From positions 27,821 to 91,820 of the forward strand of contig JAGVCW010000021.1 in the NCBI GenBank assembly GCA_020059045.1: a DNA stretch of 64,000 bases, written 5' to 3'. Positions 37,185 through 61,186 of this stretch are shown here, one piece after another. The notes under the pieces are model-generated. The model was given only the letters and a program-made list of their open reading frames with translations. It was not told where the DNA came from and did no database searches. The DNA comes from Minisyncoccota bacterium (GTDB lineage: Bacteria; Patescibacteriota; Minisyncoccia; Phycocordibacterales; Zambryskibacteraceae). Positions within the stretch are counted from its first letter, which is position 1; every line of letters starts with the position of its first letter. The position numbers were made by a program, and so were the translations under genes.

Positions 37185-37243
37185 CAGGGTGTATGTTTAA
37201 TGTCGGTTAATACTAAATGATTATTCAATGCAGCTATAATATA

Positions 37244-37828
37244 CTAATTATTCTTTAATTCAAATGATCTCATAATGATGTCGAAATCGCGAACAATTTG
37301 ATCATTTGGGCCGAGGTAAGTGACACTCGACATAATAATATTCCCCTTGTGTGAGAAGACAATGGAGTTTCCCTCATATAGCCCAGACCACCTGTAGGCA
37401 TAACCGTCACGACTGCCAACTTTTGCTGTGAGTAGTATCCCGTCAGGTGATAATTTAAAGTTTGAGTTGCCATTGCCGCGTATCCAGCTCTCTCCAGTTT
37501 CGTTCTCTAAGTTTTGGAACACGTCGATAGTGATAGCGGTGGGCCCCTCACGTGCAGTTGTACTAGCCGTGCCTTCTCGTAGAGTCCGATTTTCTTCCGA
37601 ATCTTCTGTTAATACTAGTACAGTGTGCATTCGTTCAGAATTTCCTAAGTCCTTCTCTTCCAGAAAATAATTTTCGGGGTAATCAAATGAAAATCCAAAC
37701 AAAGATGAGTTGTACGTTTTAGTATTTACGTCTCCCGTGTTAGTCCCAAGGTTCTTTATTTGAAGTGTCCAAACAATAAGTCCAAGCACGACAATTATTA
37801 TCCCAGTTATTATAATTTTTTTAGTCAT
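37244..37828 (-). CDS. Membrane-anchored hypothetical protein
   Basis: N-terminal TM helix MTKKIIITGIIIVVLGLIVW followed by a soluble domain. Confidence 0.5.
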   Translation of the reverse strand: MTKKIIITGIIIVVLGLIVWTLQIKNLGTNTGDVNTKTYNSSLFGFSFDYPENYFLEEKDLGNSERMHTVLVLTEDSEENRTLREGTASTTAREGPTAITIDVFQNLENETGESWIRGNGNSNFKLSPDGILLTAKVGSRDGYAYRWSGLYEGNSIVFSHKGNIIMSSVTYLGPNDQIVRDFDIIMRSFELKNN

Positions 37829-37940
37829 ATAGGTATTATAGCAAAGAGGTGTTTTCTATGAGAAATATGCCTTATTTTTCAAAAAAAAAGACAAGAAACG
37901 TTAACCCACAGAAGAGAATCGGTTGTAATATAATTTATAT

Positions 37941-38204
37941 ATGGACGAATCATTCAAAAAGTTGCCGCCTGAAGATTGGGTTTCAGAAAAAACTCTTGCT
38001 CGAGAACTAAGACTTACCCCGGAAGTCATCAATCATGAGATAGGGTGGCAGATAGAGAAGATTTTAGAGGAAAGTAATGGAGAGGGGATAGAGTGGATAA
38101 ATAACCAGGAACGCTATTGGTCACCTGAAGCTGCCGAAAAAGTGAAAGCAGGTATTATTGTCCGCGTGCAGGCAATAAGTGCAACAGTAAACAAAAAACA
38201 CTAA
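37941..38204 (+). CDS. Hypothetical small protein
   Basis: 87 aa ORF. Confidence 0.35.
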   Translation: MDESFKKLPPEDWVSEKTLARELRLTPEVINHEIGWQIEKILEESNGEGIEWINNQERYWSPEAAEKVKAGIIVRVQAISATVNKKH

Positions 38205-38239
38205 GTAAAACTAGTAGGGTATAAGTTTTCTAGCTAAAT

Positions 38240-38653
38240 TTAAAGCATAGAAACTATTATAATCCCAGAGATCATGAGAGTAACGATAGAGTAGAGTGCG
38301 TTTATCATAAAGAGTTTCATTGATTTCATGTCCCAGAGAACTGAACCGATGTGTATTGGTACCTGGAAGCCAAGCCATGCCCATAATGCAAGACTTAGTG
38401 CTCCCGCAATAGATGTCACTTCTTGGATAGCGATAAAGTGAGCAAGTATATAAGTAGAAATAAGTGCGAATATAAACATAAAGATGTAAGACTTCGCTAC
38501 ACCTTTAGTCTTCGCACCCGCCATCATCTCGTCTGTAATGCCAGATTCTCTTTGCCAAATTTTGCCAAACAGCGGTCCATACCAGAGGCCACCCACAATC
38601 ATGGAAGCTATTCCTCCCATAAGTACTGCCCAATAATTTATTGCAATTTCCAT
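38240..38653 (-). CDS. DUF1761-like small membrane protein
   Basis: MEIAINYWAVLMGGIASMIVGGLWYGPLFGK pattern. 4 TM helices. Confidence 0.5.
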   Translation of the reverse strand: MEIAINYWAVLMGGIASMIVGGLWYGPLFGKIWQRESGITDEMMAGAKTKGVAKSYIFMFIFALISTYILAHFIAIQEVTSIAGALSLALWAWLGFQVPIHIGSVLWDMKSMKLFMINALYSIVTLMISGIIIVSML

Positions 38654-38764
38654 AATAAATATTATTACTTTTTAATGTGTGTATTCTACCACTCTAAATG
38701 TTTTGGGGTATAACAAAAAACCGACCACGACTGATAGAAGTGGGAGGCTTTTTGTAAGGAGTAA

Positions 38765-39019
38765 TTATTCTTCTTCTGTAAACGATCCATCAAGTAGATC
38801 CTGGACATTCTTCAAAGCATCTGCACATGTATCCCTTCCTGCTTCAGTTGTCATATCACTACATGCTGGCCCCACTTTGGCTCGAAGGTCTGCAAGCTCA
38901 GTATTGAAGTCAGATACACTATCTGGCTTATTCAACTCCATAATGTAGAGAGCACCTACAATCACTAGCGCAATTGCTAGAACGTAGATCCATATGGTTT
39001 TTGTATCTTGTTGTGCCAT
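38765..39019 (-). CDS. Small membrane-anchored protein
   Basis: 84 aa. TM helix followed by an acidic tail. Confidence 0.4.
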   Translation of the reverse strand: MAQQDTKTIWIYVLAIALVIVGALYIMELNKPDSVSDFNTELADLRAKVGPACSDMTTEAGRDTCADALKNVQDLLDGSFTEEE

Positions 39020-39239
39020 ATTTGTTAGTTAATGTTATTACGACCTCATGGTTATTACTACACTATGGTGGTGAAGGCTTCATGAAGAGAGTACTACAAA
39101 AATAACAATTCTTCTCATATACAAAACTGCGAGTTTTGTCCGTTAGATTGATAAAGGTGGCAATAAAAACAAGTTTGTTATAGACTCGCTATGCAAGGCC
39201 TCGATCTTGCATAGAGCTCTTTAACCACAGGAATGGGCC

Positions 39240-39992
39240 ATGACCTCGGACAAGGCCGGAAGTTCGCGAACACGCAATCAGCTGGACTACGCTTTGGGCA
39301 AGAAGAGAATAAGCCTTAGAGGGCTTAAACCGAAAGAATTTGATGATTTTCTGGAAGCGGAACTATCGAAGATCAATCTTCGGGAGCTTCAAGGGTTTGA
39401 GCCTCTTGAGGAGTTGATTTCTCGAAGGCCGGGTAGTGTAATTTATGGTTCTCATGTTAGGCAGGATCCTTCAGAGACAGTAAGTGTAGCACCGGCAACT
39501 AAGTTCGAAGTAGCTAGTTCCGTTCCTCCACCGTTCAACTTGAAAACCCATGTAGTATGGGTTTCACAAGGAGTACTTAGTCAACTGGTTACCTGGCGCA
39601 GGTTTGAATCTCAGGAGGAGACTACTGATTGGAAGGTGGCTGACAACTGGAAAGGAGGTAGATATATTCAGAAAATGGAAGAGGAGATCCTTGTGCTTCG
39701 TTGTCCTGCAGATCACAGTGGGGCAGATGAAAACATTTTTATTGTCTGGTACGTTGCGGAGAAAGTTCCGCATGAGGATGAGATGGTTGTTAAAGTAGTA
39801 AGAGTGAAACTAGTGCCAATATCAAAGTTCCGAAAACAGTTCGGGAAAAAGTACCCATCTGTTGCTATAGAACTCATCTCAAGGATTGCGATGTTGTCTA
39901 GTATTACACTTGATGCACTTAAGAACAACGTTACTGTTTTTCAAAGGAGTGTGGTTGATATTCAAAGACTTTCTGATGCGCTCCTTCCGTAA
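39240..39992 (+). CDS. Hypothetical protein
   Basis: 250 aa ORF. Start uncertain. Confidence 0.4.
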   Translation: MTSDKAGSSRTRNQLDYALGKKRISLRGLKPKEFDDFLEAELSKINLRELQGFEPLEELISRRPGSVIYGSHVRQDPSETVSVAPATKFEVASSVPPPFNLKTHVVWVSQGVLSQLVTWRRFESQEETTDWKVADNWKGGRYIQKMEEEILVLRCPADHSGADENIFIVWYVAEKVPHEDEMVVKVVRVKLVPISKFRKQFGKKYPSVAIELISRIAMLSSITLDALKNNVTVFQRSVVDIQRLSDALLP

Positions 39993-40180
39993 AGCATGAG
40001 CATCGCTTACCTTTAAAAGGTGAGCTTTTTATTTGTCATATCTAATTTACTCTATTATTTTATTAACAATCATAATTCCTGCCAATCGGAGGCAATTATA
40101 ATGAGATAAATTTTCGTATCAAGGAAAATTTTGATCTTGTGTAAATGAAAAATCACACCAAGTTTTGTGTGATTATATGA

Positions 40181-40435
40181 TCAGTGTGGTCGGAAGTGGG
40201 AAATGTATAGAACACTACGATCCTTGAGTGCTTGGAGCTCTTTTTTCGTAAGTTTTCTTACAGTACCAGCACCAATTGCTGGGGTATGGCGTTGACCCTT
40301 TGACCTTTCTTCGCAATAAATGCCACTCACATTTCTATGTCGACGCAGTTTTCCATCTGCTCGTAATAGAATCATCCGCCAGCATTTTCGACATTCTCCG
40401 GCGTATGTAGACTGTGGTTTCTTTTTCTTCCCCAC
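40181..40435 (-). CDS. Small basic Cys-containing protein
   Basis: 84 aa. CRKC...C motif. Confidence 0.35.
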   Translation of the reverse strand: MGKKKKPQSTYAGECRKCWRMILLRADGKLRRHRNVSGIYCEERSKGQRHTPAIGAGTVRKLTKKELQALKDRSVLYISHFRPH

Positions 40436-40696
40436 GTGGGTCTCCTTGTACAGTAAATTTCTGTACGAAGCTTAGTACATAGAATAAAAAAACACAACTT
40501 CAGTAAGTAAAACATAAAAAACAAAAGCGCCCGAAGGCGGTTAGATTTATTTGTGGCGCCACAGAGTACTGCGGCATCCTACAAAAATATAGTCACTATG
40601 TTTCTTTTTTTGTGGACTTAGTAAGCCGAAATTGGAACCAGCTCCACATGTATGGGCTTTCGAGGCGTCTGAGGCGATTTTAGGGAAGCAATGGCC

Positions 40697-41155
40697 TTAT
40701 AACCGTATCTGATACATTAGCATATTGTCTTCATCTGTATATACATATGAAAAACCAGCTTTTTCTAGAAGTTTTTTAGATATTTCGTTTTCCTTTTCAA
40801 TTCCGGCTTCCACAACTTTTACTTGTTTTACTTCGGGAAGTTTTAGGCCTTCTGTTAAGAGCTCATAACCGAAACCCTTACCTCTCAATTCTGGTGCGAT
40901 AAAGAACGCGACGTATCCTATTTCAGGAGTGTCTATTTCAAAGTCTAGAAAACCAATTGGGTTCTCATCGTTTGAGACTATGAATAAATATCTCTTTTTA
41001 AAATCTATAAGATGTTTATAATCGTCCGTAGATCTATAGGTGGGTAAAAATCTCATCCCAATAGAATCATTTTCAAACCACTTCTTGATGAGTTCTCGGT
41101 CTTTTTCCTTAAATTTTCTGAAATTGATCATGTCTCTATCATAGAGCAAAAGCAC
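40697..41155 (-). CDS. GNAT family N-acetyltransferase
   Basis: IGYVAFFIAPELRGKGFGYELL (acetyl-CoA binding motif A). Confidence 0.7.
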   Translation of the reverse strand: MLLLYDRDMINFRKFKEKDRELIKKWFENDSIGMRFLPTYRSTDDYKHLIDFKKRYLFIVSNDENPIGFLDFEIDTPEIGYVAFFIAPELRGKGFGYELLTEGLKLPEVKQVKVVEAGIEKENEISKKLLEKAGFSYVYTDEDNMLMYQIRL

Positions 41156-41243
41156 CCTGAGGGTGTTTTTGCTATTTCGCTCCCAGGTGGTTTACCACGA
41201 GCGAGCCTTCGACCTGGCTCAGGCCAGGGCGAAGCGAGTCGAG

Positions 41244-41678
41244 TGGAGATGGGCGGAATCGAACCGCCGTGCAATAGAAGAGATGAAAGATTTCTACAAG
41301 AGGTAGTTTGTTTCAATCTGCCTGTTGGCAGATATTTAGACTCTGTAAGTATGGAACAAACAAAATCTTACAAAGTCGAGCTTCTACATTTCGGAAACAA
41401 GCAAAGCAATTTGTTTCCAGAGTCTCAAGTTATTACGCGAGCAACTTGTTATGAGACATCACAAGTGCTAACGTCGCTTAGGCCGACCCAGACACCGAAG
41501 TGTCGGGTTAAGAGGCGTAAACGAAAGCGAAATCCTTAGCTCCAAAATATGGAGAAACTAGAGACCCAGCTTTTGCGACAATGCTGTTTGCAATTATCGG
41601 TTGTGGCGGATTTAAGAGTCACCACAGCTCTCCCTTGCATCTATCAAATGAATTCTACTGTCTAGGCCGATCATCCCC
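41244..41678 (-). ncRNA. ssrA: tmRNA (transfer-messenger RNA)
   Basis: Minus strand. The 3' end reads GGCGGUUCGAUUCCGCC-CAUCUCC-A (T-arm plus acceptor strand). The 5' end GGGGAUG pairs with it and includes a G3:U wobble, the AlaRS identity element. An internal frame AUAAUU-GCA-AAC... resembles the E. coli resume-codon context and encodes ANSIVAKAGSLVSPYFGAKDFAFVYAS*. The smpB gene lies 350 bp upstream on the same strand. Confidence 0.65.
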
Positions 41679-41746
41679 TAAATCATCTTGACTACAAGAT
41701 GATCGGGCGAACAATTTGCGGAGCAAAATTGTTTTAGCCCCACAAA

Positions 41747-42019
41747 CTAATTGTTACGCCCTATTTTGTCTAAATATTTCTTTAGTATTTTCTTTTTTTC
41801 TCTTGCTGACCACAATGTCTTAAGAAAACGCTCCCTTTGGAATGCATCTGACTTGTCTAAGTATTTTTCTTGGTGAATAACAACAAGAGGTCTGCGCGAT
41901 CTAGTAGAAAGTACTTTTCCACTATTGTGCGCTTGAATTCTTTTTTGTATATTCTTCGTGCATCCAACATAGAGCCCACTGTCTTTGGTACTAAGCAATA
42001 TGTATACAAAATAGTGCAT
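41747..42019 (-). CDS. GIY-YIG domain protein (UPF0213-like)
   Basis: HYFVYILLSTKDSGLYVGCTKNIQKRIQAHNSG. Confidence 0.75.
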   Translation of the reverse strand: MHYFVYILLSTKDSGLYVGCTKNIQKRIQAHNSGKVLSTRSRRPLVVIHQEKYLDKSDAFQRERFLKTLWSAREKKKILKKYLDKIGRNN

Positions 42020-42023
42020 AAGC

Positions 42024-42467
42024 CTATTTATATTTCAAAGTTCTTCTCATCTCTCTCTCGGTCTCTCTTTTCTTTATACTCTGACGTTTGTCCCGTGTTT
42101 TCTTACCACGGGCTATGCCGATTGCTACCTTGATTTTTCTTCCTTTATTATACACCGAAAGTGGTACTACTGTCAAACCTCTTTGCCTCTCAGAATCCAT
42201 AATAGTTTTAATCTCAGCTTTGGTTAGCAGGAGCTTGCGGTTTCTTCTCGAATCATAACCTTTTGGGGTGTTCGCAGCCTGATAGGGAGGAATATCTGAG
42301 CCCACGAGGAATGCTTCATTACCTCGTGCGATTACGTGCGATCCGTCGAGTGACCCACGTTTCATGCGCAAAGCTTTAACTTCAAATCCAAGCAGCTCTA
42401 TACCCGCCTCGATTTTCTCGAGTATTTCGTAGTTAAACCCTACCTTTTTGTTCTCAACTAGTGACAT
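42024..42467 (-). CDS. smpB: SsrA-binding protein SmpB
   Basis: RKLLLTKAEI...GLTVVPLSVYNKGRKIKVAIGIARGKKTRDKRQSIKKRETEREM. Confidence 0.85.
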   Translation of the reverse strand: MSLVENKKVGFNYEILEKIEAGIELLGFEVKALRMKRGSLDGSHVIARGNEAFLVGSDIPPYQAANTPKGYDSRRNRKLLLTKAEIKTIMDSERQRGLTVVPLSVYNKGRKIKVAIGIARGKKTRDKRQSIKKRETEREMRRTLKYK

Positions 42468-42939: not shown

Positions 42940-44892
42940 TTGCTCTCTAATATTAGCCATATGGCAACACAGAATCCTAAAAACAAAAAGCAGTTCAAGG
43001 TGGTAATGAAGAAGGACTGGAAGAGCCCGGGAAGCAGTTCTATGTGGAAGAACTTTCTGTCAGTCGTTCTCATTTTTTTAATTATTTCTACAATTTATTC
43101 AGCGTTAACTGAAGGCAGTCAAGAGGCACTTCAGATTCCCATTTCAGAATTAGCTCGCGATGTGAACCAAGAGCTTGTTCTAAAAGTAGTGGTTGAAGGT
43201 GATGAGGTGAAAGCAGAATACAAGTCAGGAGAGATAAAGGATACTAAGAAGGAAGAGGGTATCGCACTCACTGAGACACTCGTAAGATATGGTGTAACGC
43301 CAGAGAAGCTTCTGGGTCTCAATATTGAAATAGTAAAGGAGAGTGGTTTCATGTTTTGGCTTTTGAATCTTTTGCCGATAATTCTGCCAATTCTCTTCAT
43401 TGTTTTTTTCATTTGGTATTTATCTCGCCAGGTCAAGGGTGCTGGGATGCAAGCATTTACATTCGGCCAATCCAAGGCTCGTCTCATACCGCCAAACGAC
43501 AAGAAACAGAAAGTAACTTTCAAGGATGTTGCCGGGGTCAAGGAAGCAAAGCAAGAGCTCACCGAGATCGTAGATTTTCTTCGAAATCCTAAAAAGTTTT
43601 TAGACATTGGAGCACAGATTCCAAAAGGAGTACTGCTCATGGGTGCCCCAGGAACAGGTAAAACTTTGCTTGCTCGAGCTGTAGCGGGAGAAGCAAACGT
43701 GGCTTTCTTTTCTATATCTGGTTCTGAGTTCGTAGAAATGTTTGTAGGAGTTGGAGCTTCGCGTGTACGTGACCTTTTTCAGCTTGCCAAGCGTGCAGCA
43801 CCCGCGATTATTTTCGTTGATGAGATAGATGCTGTAGGACGAGTGCGAGGAGTGGGTGCGGGTGGTGGTAATGATGAAAGGGAACAGACTTTGAACCAGA
43901 TTCTAGTTGAGATGGACGGTTTCGAGCCAAATGAGAAAGTTATTGTGATGGCAGCGACCAATAGACCGGACGTTCTAGACCCTGCACTCCTGCGTCCTGG
44001 CCGATTCGACAGGCGCGTTGTTATAGATCTGCCAGACCGAGCAGAAAGAGAAGAGATTCTCCATATTCACTCACGGCAAAAACCTTTTGGTGAAGACGTA
44101 AAATTGAATGTAATAGCTGAGAGAACACCAGGATTTTCTGGTGCAGACCTCTATTCACTTATGAATGAGGGTGCGATACTTGCTGCACGTGAAGATAGAA
44201 CGAAGATTTCTCAGTTTGATCTGATTCGCTCTATTGAGAAGGTGATCCTTGGCCCGGAGCGAAAGAGCCATATCTTGTCTCTCAAAGAGAAAGAGATCAC
44301 CGCGTATCACGAAGCCGGTCATGCACTTGTCTCATCAGTTCTTGATTATGCCGACCCAGTGCACAAAATTTCAATAATTTCTCGTGGCAGAGCTGCTGGC
44401 TACACTCTCAACTTGCCAATAGAAGATCGCAAGCTTCAGTCTAAGAAAGAGTTTCTAGATGATATAGCTATGGCTCTCGGTGGCTATGTTGCTGAGCGTA
44501 CTGTCTTTGGTGATCTTACTACTGGTCCATCCAATGATCTCCAGGTTTCCACGGGCCTTGCACGTGATATGGTGACCAAGTATGGAATGTCTGAAAAGAT
44601 TGGCCCCATAGCTCTAGAGGAGCCAACAGGCAGGGTGCTCTTTGGTAAAGGTCTTGAAGATAGGGAATACTCCGAGAAGGTAGGTGCAGAGATTGACGGA
44701 GAAGTCTCAAAAATTATGAAGGAAGCCCTAGAGCGCGCAGAGAAGGTGATTGGTGAGTACAGAAAAGCACTCGATGCTATTGCCAAGCGACTGATAGAAG
44801 TAGAAACTATAGAGAGGGACGAGTTCGAGCTTATTTTAATCGCTCATGGCATTACTCCCAAGAAGAAAAAAGATATAGAACATCAAGTTTAA
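42940..44892 (+). CDS. ftsH: ATP-dependent zinc metalloprotease FtsH
   Basis: Two N-terminal TM helices. [18 protein letters not shown] Walker A. SRH motif. HEAGHAL zinc-binding site. Confidence 0.95.
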
Positions 44893-48792: not shown

Positions 48793-48866
48793 AGAATATT
48801 TGTCCACCCTCCACGATTTGAACGTGGGACCCTCGAGGTATAAGCTCGATGCTCTAACCAACTGAG
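48793..48866 (-). tRNA. tRNA-Ile with anticodon UAU (reads AUA)
   Basis: Minus strand: CCACCCU-UA-GCUC-AGUUGGUUA-GAGC-A-UCGAG-CUUAUAC-CUCGA-GGGUC-CCACG-UUCAAAU-CGUGG-AGGGUGG-A. Perfect cloverleaf. The anticodon-loop middle triplet is UAU. The D-arm is typical of Ile/Met. Confidence 0.7.
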
Positions 48867-49017
48867 CTAAGGGTGGTATAGCGCTCAAATACTATATCAA
48901 ATATGGAAATCCTTCAATTATTACAGTCGTGCGGTTAAGTGTCCCAGCTATCCACAACGTGAGTATTCACATTGTTATAACCTAAGGGTATACTTCTAAT
49001 CAAGTTGCGGTCCTGTC

Positions 49018-58570: not shown

Positions 58571-59497
58571 TTAGTAACTTTGTGCAAGAGTATTATCAAA
58601 TACATGCTCGTATCTTTCGGGCGAACCAAATCCATGCTCATCAAAATCATCAAGTAAATCTTTTAGCGGAAATGACCTGGCGCCATCTTTTCTCCTGACT
58701 ATGCAGCGACCACCTTGTTTAGTACCAAAAGGATGCCTTTGAGGACTGACCACATCTTCTTGGATATAAGGCTTAGAAAAGACCTCTTTATTAAAGTAAG
58801 CAATGACTTTCTTGTGAACCGTATCTAAATAATTCTTTCCTGAATCATCCCCGTTGAAATATTCCCCATGCACCAATCGATTTCTTAACCCATTTTCATC
58901 TGCAAATATTTCTGTTGCTAAATCCTCACCTAAAATCTTTGTATATAAATTTATTGACTTTTTGAATACAGATTTATTCCTTTTCCGAGCCATTGCTTCC
59001 ATTGCAGAAAACATCAAAAGAAGTTTTGCAGAATAACCTGAAGCGTTTACAGCGTCATTCCAGTAATGATAGAAGGGTTCTGGAATTTCCTCATGTTTTA
59101 GGAGTTCTACTAGACCGTCTCGTTCTTTCTCCATAAACATCAACCCTCCTGATTTCACATCTTGACTGTACTCAAAAAACGCAATGTCTCTACTGAGATC
59201 ATGAACTATAAAAGGTTCTCTTGTGAATTCTATGTACGACTGACAAATTAATGATATGCGTGGAATGAGTTTGTTCAACCTTGCTCTAAAAACATTTATT
59301 GCGTCTATAAAGTTTTCAGCTTCAATTTCACAGGTTGCAATCCAAGCATCTGAATCTTTCCAGCCATCTCTAAAATTAAAGTCACAATGGGAAAATTCCA
59401 AACCTTCAATTTCAAACGAAGCAGGTTTTTCTTTCACCTCCATTACTGCGCAATGAGCAAGTGTGAGAATTTTATGTTCTATTCTGTATTTTTTCAT
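58571..59497 (-). CDS. Hypothetical protein with a HEPN-like Rx4H motif (possible abortive-infection / RNase-type defence protein)
   Basis: C-terminal region ...LATEIFADENGLRNRLVHGEY contains R-x4-H. 308 aa. No housekeeping homolog recognised. Confidence 0.4.
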   Translation of the reverse strand: MKKYRIEHKILTLAHCAVMEVKEKPASFEIEGLEFSHCDFNFRDGWKDSDAWIATCEIEAENFIDAINVFRARLNKLIPRISLICQSYIEFTREPFIVHDLSRDIAFFEYSQDVKSGGLMFMEKERDGLVELLKHEEIPEPFYHYWNDAVNASGYSAKLLLMFSAMEAMARKRNKSVFKKSINLYTKILGEDLATEIFADENGLRNRLVHGEYFNGDDSGKNYLDTVHKKVIAYFNKEVFSKPYIQEDVVSPQRHPFGTKQGGRCIVRRKDGARSFPLKDLLDDFDEHGFGSPERYEHVFDNTLAQSY

Positions 59498-61080: not shown

Positions 61081-61106
61081 TTCAAAGTTGCCAATCTGGC
61101 GGAGAG
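61081..61106. repeat. 26-bp direct repeat spanning the tRNA-Ser 3' end plus 16 bp of flank (copy 1)
   Basis: TTCAAAGTTGCCAATCTGGCGGAGAG. Identical copy at 62655-62680. Confidence 0.85.
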
Positions 61107-61186
61107 AGTGGGATTCGAACCCACGGTTCCGGTAAAGGAACGACGGTTTAGTAAACCGTTGATTTAAACCACTCATCCATCTCTCC
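61097..61186 (-). tRNA. tRNA-Ser (type II, long variable arm) with an apparent ACU anticodon
   Basis: GGAGAGA-UG-GAU-GAGUGGUUUAA-AUC-A-ACGGU-UUACUAA-ACCGU-[CGUUCCUUUACCGGAACC]-GUGGG-UUCGAAU-CCCAC-UCUCUCC-G-CCA. Discriminator G73, a 3-bp D-stem and a long V-arm indicate Ser identity. The loop UUACUAA gives anticodon ACU rather than the usual GCU. CCA is encoded. Confidence 0.7.

Follow-up and report, generated by a model that had tools for sequence, protein, structure and literature searches.

Does a stretch of DNA in which ARAGORN reports no transfer-messenger RNA (tmRNA) encode one, and what is a small nuclease gene doing between that RNA and smpB, the gene for its binding protein? Both questions are raised by the smpB-ssrA region of a 64,000-nt stretch from a Minisyncoccota bacterium (GenBank assembly GCA_020059045.1, contig JAGVCW010000021.1, positions 27,821 to 91,820), which we call the window and to whose numbering our coordinates refer. 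A first-pass annotation, made from the letters and translated open reading frames (ORFs), had described a cluster of smpB, a GIY-YIG nuclease-domain gene and ssrA here. We conclude, with a probability of about 0.85, that the region is a trans-translation locus of the Patescibacteria (Paceibacteria type) in which a standard one-piece tmRNA gene comes after smpB in the same orientation. The nuclease gene and a palindromic element attached to it are most likely an accessory or selfish insertion and not rescue machinery.

The tmRNA gene and its tag

Infernal, run with Rfam 15, assigned positions 41241-41678 of the minus strand to RF00023 with 101.5 bits (gathering score 47, E 1.7e-38). The match spans the full model (positions 1-374) and is the single tmRNA match in the 64-kb window, so that Infernal succeeded where ARAGORN failed and found no separate ssrA there. 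A 22-mer from the tmRNA 3' end occurs in one copy in the window and gave 0 matches in 100 shuffles. The parts named in the first-pass annotation were all recovered (Table 1): the acceptor strands pair to give G3.U70, the alanine identity pair, in a 435-nt RNA; the T-arm and discriminator A lie where it had placed them; and AUAAUU precedes the GCA-AAC resume site of a 27-codon frame. The regions of PK1-PK4 are spanned by the Rfam alignment at low posterior probability and with two insertions (24 nt and about 14 nt). CCA is not encoded, and CUC comes after the discriminator.

Table 1. Features of the smpB-ssrA region, in window coordinates unless a locus is named
Feature	Coordinates	Strand	Evidence or remark
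ssrA, 435 nt to discriminator base	41244..41678	-	Rfam RF00023; ARAGORN after 10-nt internal deletion
5' acceptor strand GGGGAUG	41672..41678	-	carries G3 of G3.U70; pairs with 41245-41251
T-arm GGCGG-UUCGAUU-CCGCC	41252-41268	-	Rfam alignment
3' acceptor strand CAUCUCC	41245-41251	-	Rfam alignment
Discriminator A	41244	-	Rfam alignment
Tag frame	41508..41591	-	GCA resume codon 41591-41589; 27 codons ANSIVAKAGSLVSPYFGAKDFAFVYAS; UAA stop 41510-41508
smpB, 147 amino acids, SsrA-binding protein	42024..42467	-	PF01668, 159.8 bits
Sigma-70 consensus promoter (predicted) in smpB coding sequence: TTGACA, 18 nt, TATAAT	42147..42176	-	12/12 consensus match
3' trailer, two hairpins: CUCGACUCG, variable hairpin, CUCGCUCGUGGUAAACCAC	41179..41243	-	fold z-score -4.5
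Intrinsic-terminator-like hairpin and U-run	41145..41173	-	terminator scan match 41165..41153; extended stem in minimum free energy fold
GIY-YIG gene, 90 amino acids, minimal stand-alone Slx1/UPF0213 type	41747..42019	-	PF01541, 53.3 bits (cutoff 22.6)
Two-hairpin element, 63 nt: GGGGCUAAA, hairpin 1, UCGCCCGAUC, hairpin 2, UUUAG	41679..41741	-	fold z-score -6.6
ftsH (AAA+/M41 protease), divergent from smpB	42940..44892	+	Peptidase_M41 214 bits, AAA 149 bits; candidate tag protease, context only
Other small GIY-YIG genes	L022:7493-7729, L035:7030-7266, L039:1663-1899, L046:6936-7181		adjoin a tRNA-like gene
Small GIY-YIG genes downstream of ssrA	12 genes in 11 loci	same as ssrA	

The upstream gene called smpB in the first-pass annotation keeps that name on Pfam and NCBIfam grounds, the latter being the equivalog matches NF003843 at 165.6 bits and TIGR00086 at 159.8 bits (cutoffs 130 and 119.1) over residues 3-145 of 147. 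A search with this SmpB returned 80 species representatives at up to 68% identity, all Patescibacteria of the Paceibacteria group, with record labels from the Taylor-, Nomura-, Zambryski- and Vogelbacteria. We refer to the ssrA loci of these relatives as L001-L080; L081-L089 are loci picked by way of their GIY-YIG protein. The tmRNA lies directly after smpB on the same strand in 78 of the 80 species loci, and in the other two the sequence ends early. All 78 relatives have G3.U70 and the discriminator A, and acceptor-stem positions 4-5 show compensatory changes (GGGACUG/CAGUUCC). CCA is encoded in 17 of the 78 and absent from 61. At 435 nt, the window ssrA is the second-longest among the 78, whose median is ~398 nt. 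The window belongs to the core chromosome, with genes for EF-G, EF-Tu, SecY, RecG, GuaA and IF3. The tmRNA-SmpB locus of the window is typical of its lineage, and the tmRNA itself is an expected housekeeping gene.

ARAGORN or Infernal had been proposed as the check on the tmRNA assignment, and only the second program confirmed it: on the unmodified window ARAGORN reported no tmRNA. The terminal serine of the tag and the absent CCA were considered as causes and rejected, as in-silico S27A and CCA edits do not restore the call. Lowering the score threshold to 80% brought no rescue, and at 70% spurious permuted calls alone appeared. Taking out any 10 nt or more (10-60 nt tested) from the stretch that separates the tag stop from the 3' tRNA-like domain did restore the call, as did removal of either of two small hairpins in the tmRNA body. 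The restored call places the tag at positions 88-171, with a peptide identical to that in Table 1. Because 10-nt deletions are enough, the ARAGORN result is a false negative that reflects a size or geometric limit. The same program misses 37 of the 78 homologous tmRNAs in relatives and detects 41; of those missed, 17 were run through Infernal, and every one is a full-length tmRNA (86-131 bits). Since about half of the tmRNAs of this clade are lost on size, ssrA is probably under-annotated in Patescibacteria genomes.

We compared tags from 77 genomes, the window included, with relatives anchored at the aligned resume-codon column; a longest-ORF heuristic for tag starts, which extended tags too far upstream, was rejected in favor of this alignment-anchored reading. 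The frame is open at the aligned column in 76/76 relatives, and all tags belong to one family with the consensus roughly A[KN]..K.K..VSPYFG..DFAFAYA.A. The resume codon is GCA in 69 of the 77 and GCN in 74; A stands at -4 in every case, and U-5A-4 in 72. Tags are 10-29 residues long (median 27) and end at UAA in 73 cases. Their last residue is Ala in 73 and Ser in 2, and an AA ending occurs in 2. None of the 77 has Asp or Glu among its last six residues, and the nonpolar fraction of the last ten is 0.70. The tag in the window had been singled out as unusually long and not ending in AA, which holds against the E. coli canon but not for the clade: on the aligned sequences, both its length and its non-AA ending are lineage norms, and the terminal Ser alone is unusual. 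The tag ends in ...SPYFGAKDFAFVYAS (…FAFVYAS). A terminal Ser is also found in L073 and, as ...FAFAYVS, in the loci L087 and L088, obtained from two independent samples.

In the mechanism that we propose, Ala-tmRNA with SmpB would enter stalled ribosomes and append Ala plus the encoded peptide ANSIVAKAGSLVSPYFGAKDFAFVYAS. The nonpolar, aromatic, acid-free C-terminal half of the tag would then be the degron recognized by an AAA+ protease of the Lon or FtsH type, and not by ClpX. We infer this from the composition of the tag and from its analogy to the 27-residue, Lon-targeted Mycoplasma tag: M. pneumoniae, whose tag also has 27 residues, has no ClpXP and relies mainly on Lon to clear tagged proteins, and Lon and FtsH of E. 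coli also degrade tagged proteins (PMC8403727). The long tag of this clade, basic and then aromatic and almost never ending in LAA, would parallel the Mycoplasma switch to Lon and predicts that these ultra-small bacteria dispose of tagged proteins via Lon or FtsH. A literature search returned nothing relevant on Patescibacteria tmRNA tags or on the protease complement of the candidate phyla radiation. In 48 of 86 related loci, a divergently oriented ftsH is found no more than 1.5 kb upstream of smpB.

Transcription and surroundings of ssrA

The gap between smpB and ssrA is 4-200 nt in most loci and just 4-11 nt in many, which leaves no room for an intergenic promoter in many relatives. The predicted sigma-70 promoter inside smpB overlies the codons for GLT...VYNK. 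Its TTGACA is exact in 72 and its TATAAT in 68 of 82 distinct relatives. At the -35 site, Leu is encoded by TTG in 95/97 sequences, compared with 19% of Leu codons in the rest of smpB, and Thr by ACA in 85/95, compared with 24% of Thr codons in the rest. Given this synonymous-site constraint and gaps down to 4 nt, an ssrA promoter embedded in smpB is the best reading, and on this sequence evidence it probably drives a transcript of the GIY-YIG gene and ssrA. Such a promoter, kept at synonymous sites, would be a clean case of overlapping coding and regulatory constraint and would explain how ssrA is expressed where the gap is 4-11 nt.

Transcription would start at this promoter (42176-42147), pass the optional GIY-YIG cassette and ssrA, and end at the terminator at ~41150. 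RNase P would cut at 41678, the 65-nt trailer would be removed, and CCA would be added enzymatically, since it is not encoded. The same trailer element, with other covarying hairpin sequences, follows ssrA in L004, L008 and L078 only, that is, in 4 of about 79 genomes including the window. Many relatives (L003, L007, L011, L012, L019, L036, L043, L047, L071 and L073), though not the window, carry past the ssrA terminator a copy of part of the tmRNA 3' end in inverted form (UGGAGAUGG, hairpin, GGCGGAAUCGAA), which could pair with the tRNA-like 3' end in the precursor.

Between ssrA and infC, at 37185-41243, the window has ~4 kb of accessory genes (a GNAT acetyltransferase, DUF1761 and several ORFs without a family). 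In relatives such as L087, infC begins within 300 nt after ssrA, and the interval in the window is a variable region. An integrase-type island at the ssrA 3' end was considered and rejected: the window has no second copy of the 22-nt 3' end, even at 3 mismatches, so no such island is evident, and neither an integrase nor an att repeat was found in 37185-41243. Elsewhere in the window, ARAGORN reports a tRNA-Ser with the anticodon ACU at 61097-61186 (minus strand), in which A34 is unusual outside tRNA-Arg.

The GIY-YIG gene and its palindromic element

The gene between smpB and ssrA is, as the first-pass annotation had read it, of the GIY-YIG type. It starts 4 nt past the smpB stop codon. Its AlphaFold model (mean predicted local distance difference test score, pLDDT, 94.9) has no extra domain, and Foldseek places it closest to 1zg2, the B. 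halodurans UPF0213 protein BH0048 (E 5.9e-5, 34% identity), followed by Slx1 nuclease domains (E 1.5e-3 to 9e-3) and I-TevI (E 0.1). 1zg2 has been placed in the Slx1 family as a minimal stand-alone GIY-YIG variant, paralogous to the homing-endonuclease/UvrC lineage (PMC1564403). In a set of 52 homologues, residues Y6, Y17, G19, R27, H31 and E63 do not vary or are conserved to at least 90%. A literature search found no such genomic context for UPF0213 proteins and nothing relevant on GIY-YIG beside tmRNA or on YhbQ.

The ssrA-linked subfamily comprises at least 109 clusters at 90% identity, and in 6/6 sampled database homologues the gene lies 4-24 nt after smpB and before ssrA. It occupies this site in 5 of 78 GTDB loci and in 7 metagenome loci. 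The cassette is present in L016 and L051 and absent from L017 and L035, with SmpB proteins that are 90-93% identical; L047 has the gene as a run-on ORF and L077 a remnant only. On a 93-taxon SmpB tree, we count at least 12 state changes, and GIY-YIG and SmpB distances correlate weakly (Mantel r 0.27). Small GIY-YIG genes in general keep to tRNA-like genes: across 703 kb of Paceibacteria loci, 31 of 31 adjoin ssrA or tRNA-Ile(UAU) on the same strand. Some precede ssrA, others follow it at a distance of 127-630 nt, and the rest stand 0-9 nt before tRNA-Ile(UAU). The window has a tRNA-Ile(UAU) at 48802-48876 (minus strand; ARAGORN), and this tRNA recurs near smpB in relatives.

Between the GIY-YIG gene and ssrA lies the two-hairpin, Y-shaped element, the end of which abuts tmRNA +1 exactly. 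Its family has the layout GGCUAAA, hairpin 1, UCGCCCGAAC, hairpin 2, UUUUAG, then GG. Every GIY-YIG gene that precedes ssrA has such an element after it, ending at tmRNA +1, and the two co-occur in the unbiased GTDB set with a Fisher p of 1.7e-5. The hairpin sequences are wholly different between genomes. RNAalifold recovered both hairpins, with compensatory double changes at 11/18 pairs in 28 element copies. G.T wobbles make up ~1% of some 870 stem pairs; this near-absence fits palindromes constrained on both DNA strands. The window holds one copy only, and its motif matches at 58624, 33041 and 20363 are unrelated sequence, arising by chance. In L016, the final codons of smpB have been replaced by a second copy and, after it, a degenerate tmRNA 5' start (GGGGAGAUGCC; L016:4430-4490), so that the GIY-YIG gene there is flanked by two copies.

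The element is not confined to ssrA. A metagenome scan yielded at least 36 well-formed copies among at least 120 pattern matches, and among the matches listed 8 of 36 well-formed copies precede ssrA, for which reason we rejected a tmRNA-specific leader. Other metagenome copies stop precisely where a tRNA-Glu or tRNA-Ser gene begins, precede an RNase P RNA-like sequence (GGAGGAAAGUCCG) or follow ordinary ORFs. In L160 the element is found in antisense orientation within the P5 loop of a group I intron; it abuts 23S rRNA insertions in L136 and L180, and one contig (L174) carries two near-identical copies in opposite orientation. Further loci with the family are L092, L099, L126 and L164.

Several other identities for the element were tried and discarded. 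A sigma-70 promoter was rejected, as the distance from UCGCCCG to +1 varies over 24-35 nt, and so was a known RNA family or ribozyme, as Rfam 15 at E up to 10 gave no family besides tmRNA in 41150-42100. A group I intron core was rejected: the L160 copy is an insertion in P5, and permissive Rfam scans of 17 module loci gave no other introns. We also rejected a phage origin of element or nuclease, with 0 well-formed copies in 41 viral pattern matches, no PHROG match for the protein, and the GIY-YIG subfamily essentially absent from viral contigs (one distant relative only). An intrinsic terminator is a separate case, with features on both sides: hairpin 2 is followed by UUU(U)AG, yet the stems are A+T-rich and a consensus terminator scan made no call there; if the promoter embedded in smpB drives ssrA, efficient termination at the element would abolish tmRNA synthesis. 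As a working idea, an RNase P cut at the downstream +1 would leave the upstream mRNA ending in two stabilizing hairpins.

The GIY-YIG gene and the 63-nt element would together form an optional ~340-bp cassette between the promoter and ssrA, where it would ride on ssrA transcription. We regard this cassette as most likely an accessory or selfish insertion and not rescue machinery. Beyond that, we suggest only tentatively, and with the odds against it, that the minimal Slx1-type GIY-YIG genes of the Paceibacteria are an undescribed class of cassette at the edges of tRNA-like genes, coupled at ssrA to the Y-shaped element. If true, this would reveal a new kind of mobile element that targets structure, or else a nuclease with a new function connected with tRNA-like genes.

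Between those two, a site-specific mobile element fares slightly better, though we consider it rather unlikely. The nuclease would cut branched or cruciform DNA, either where the site is empty or in the element, and homing-like repair would copy the cassette. The patchwork of filled and empty sites in close relatives would follow, as would the strict linkage of element and gene at ssrA, the flanking copies in L016, partial copies in L081 and L085, the ~1% of G.U pairs expected of palindromes constrained on both strands, and the occurrence of the element in either orientation relative to host RNAs (L160, L136, L174); Slx1 enzymes, moreover, cut branched DNA. A 90-residue protein with no DNA-binding domain, however, has little to provide site specificity, and the GIY-YIG proteins are 51-67% identical, as diverged as SmpB, so that no recent transfer is visible. 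Moreover, the element is common where no GIY-YIG gene is nearby, neither gene nor element was found on viral contigs, and no target-site duplication is consistent across copies.

It is less likely again that the GIY-YIG protein is a functional partner of tRNA-like RNAs, processing or maintaining tmRNA or tRNA genes or transcripts, or cutting mRNA or DNA during rescue. The same-strand adjacency of all 31 small genes to ssrA or tRNA-Ile(UAU), the finding of the ssrA-linked subfamily solely at the smpB-ssrA site, its conserved catalytic residues and its presumed co-transcription with ssrA from the embedded promoter would suit such a role. Against it, just 5 of 78 related species carry the gene and near-identical relatives lack it, with the repeated gains or losses noted above; absence from more than 90% of species would not be expected of a core partner, and its fold is that of DNA structure-specific nucleases (Slx1/UPF0213) and not of known RNases. 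Least probable by far, and in our estimation very remote, is a decaying or non-functional ssrA in the window, for although its length, its extra insertions, the missing CCA, the rare terminal Ser and the ARAGORN rejection could be read that way, the Rfam match is full-length, the acceptor, T-arm and resume context are intact, the tag frame is open, the ARAGORN failure is a length cutoff, most relatives also lack CCA, Ser-ending tags recur in independent genomes or samples (L073; L087, L088), smpB and its embedded promoter are intact, and the window has no other tmRNA.

Several points weigh against our reading of the locus as a trans-translation unit with a selfish cassette. The terminal Ser departs from a near-universal Ala and may weaken or change degron recognition; FtsH is the only candidate tag protease in the window, and ClpXP could serve as well. 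That ssrA is driven from this promoter, matured by RNase P, given its CCA by an enzyme and linked to a Lon- or FtsH-type protease is in each case inferred. The SmpB tree is a neighbor-joining tree from a 147-residue protein, and loci L081-L089 were chosen via GIY-YIG. A selfish cassette, too, has to contend with the lack of a DNA-binding domain, with the mostly vertical inheritance described for the Slx1 family (PMC1564403), with purifying selection on the catalytic residues, and with an adjacency to tRNA-like genes that, at 31/31, could mean function and not insertion preference. It is worthwhile in itself to have annotated the tag style of the lineage and the probable promoter within smpB; the GIY-YIG cassette and the palindromic element are the sole unexplained components, and they point to unrecognized traffic at tRNA-like genes in this phylum.

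Comparison with known systems

With E. coli-type one-piece tmRNA, the RNA of the window shares a tRNA-like domain with G3.U70 and discriminator A, U-5A-4 before a GCA resume codon, a short ORF closed by UAA, an adjacent upstream smpB and, as the Rfam alignment may suggest, a pseudoknot-rich body. It differs in encoding 27 tag residues instead of 10, in a tag with a basic N-terminal end and an aromatic, nonpolar C-terminal end that lacks LAA-COOH, in the absence of an encoded CCA, and in a promoter that apparently lies inside smpB and not in the intergenic space. The tags of Mycoplasma and Mesoplasma (27 residues, Lon-specific degron) are closer in style: these too are tags of about 27 residues in a genome-reduced bacterium, with a hydrophobic, aromatic C-terminal segment ending in x-A or x-S and not in LAA. 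The two share no sequence homology, however, the Patescibacteria family having its own core, SPYFG..DFAFAYA.A, and the proteases of the window genome are known from the window only, where FtsH is the sole one seen.

The GIY-YIG protein resembles UPF0213/BH0048 (1zg2) in its single domain of about 90 residues, its beta-beta-alpha-beta-alpha-alpha fold, the 34% identity already noted and its conserved GIY/YIG tyrosines, Arg, His and Glu; the subfamily in the window is set apart by its fixed smpB-ssrA address, its patchy spread and the attached palindromic element. Like GIY-YIG homing endonuclease genes (T4 Seg, the I-TevI catalytic domain), it is a small nuclease gene between conserved genes that adjoins conserved tRNA-like genes and varies in presence among close relatives. 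Unlike them, it encodes no DNA-binding domain and shows no phage affiliation by PHROG or on viral contigs, and its structure is nearer to Slx1/UPF0213 than to I-TevI (E 6e-5 versus 0.1).

The element itself recalls the repetitive extragenic palindromic (REP) sequences and bacterial interspersed mosaic elements (BIMEs): these also are short palindromic units at gene ends or in intergenic positions, found in both orientations, with near-identical copies in one contig (as in L174) and stems that are conserved as structure. No REP-associated tyrosine transposase (RAYT) was seen with it, and it differs further in that its stems vary wholly between genomes while the single-stranded GGCUAAA, UCGCCCGAAC and UUUUAG-GG are invariant, and in that many of its copies end exactly at the 5' ends of tRNA or tmRNA genes.

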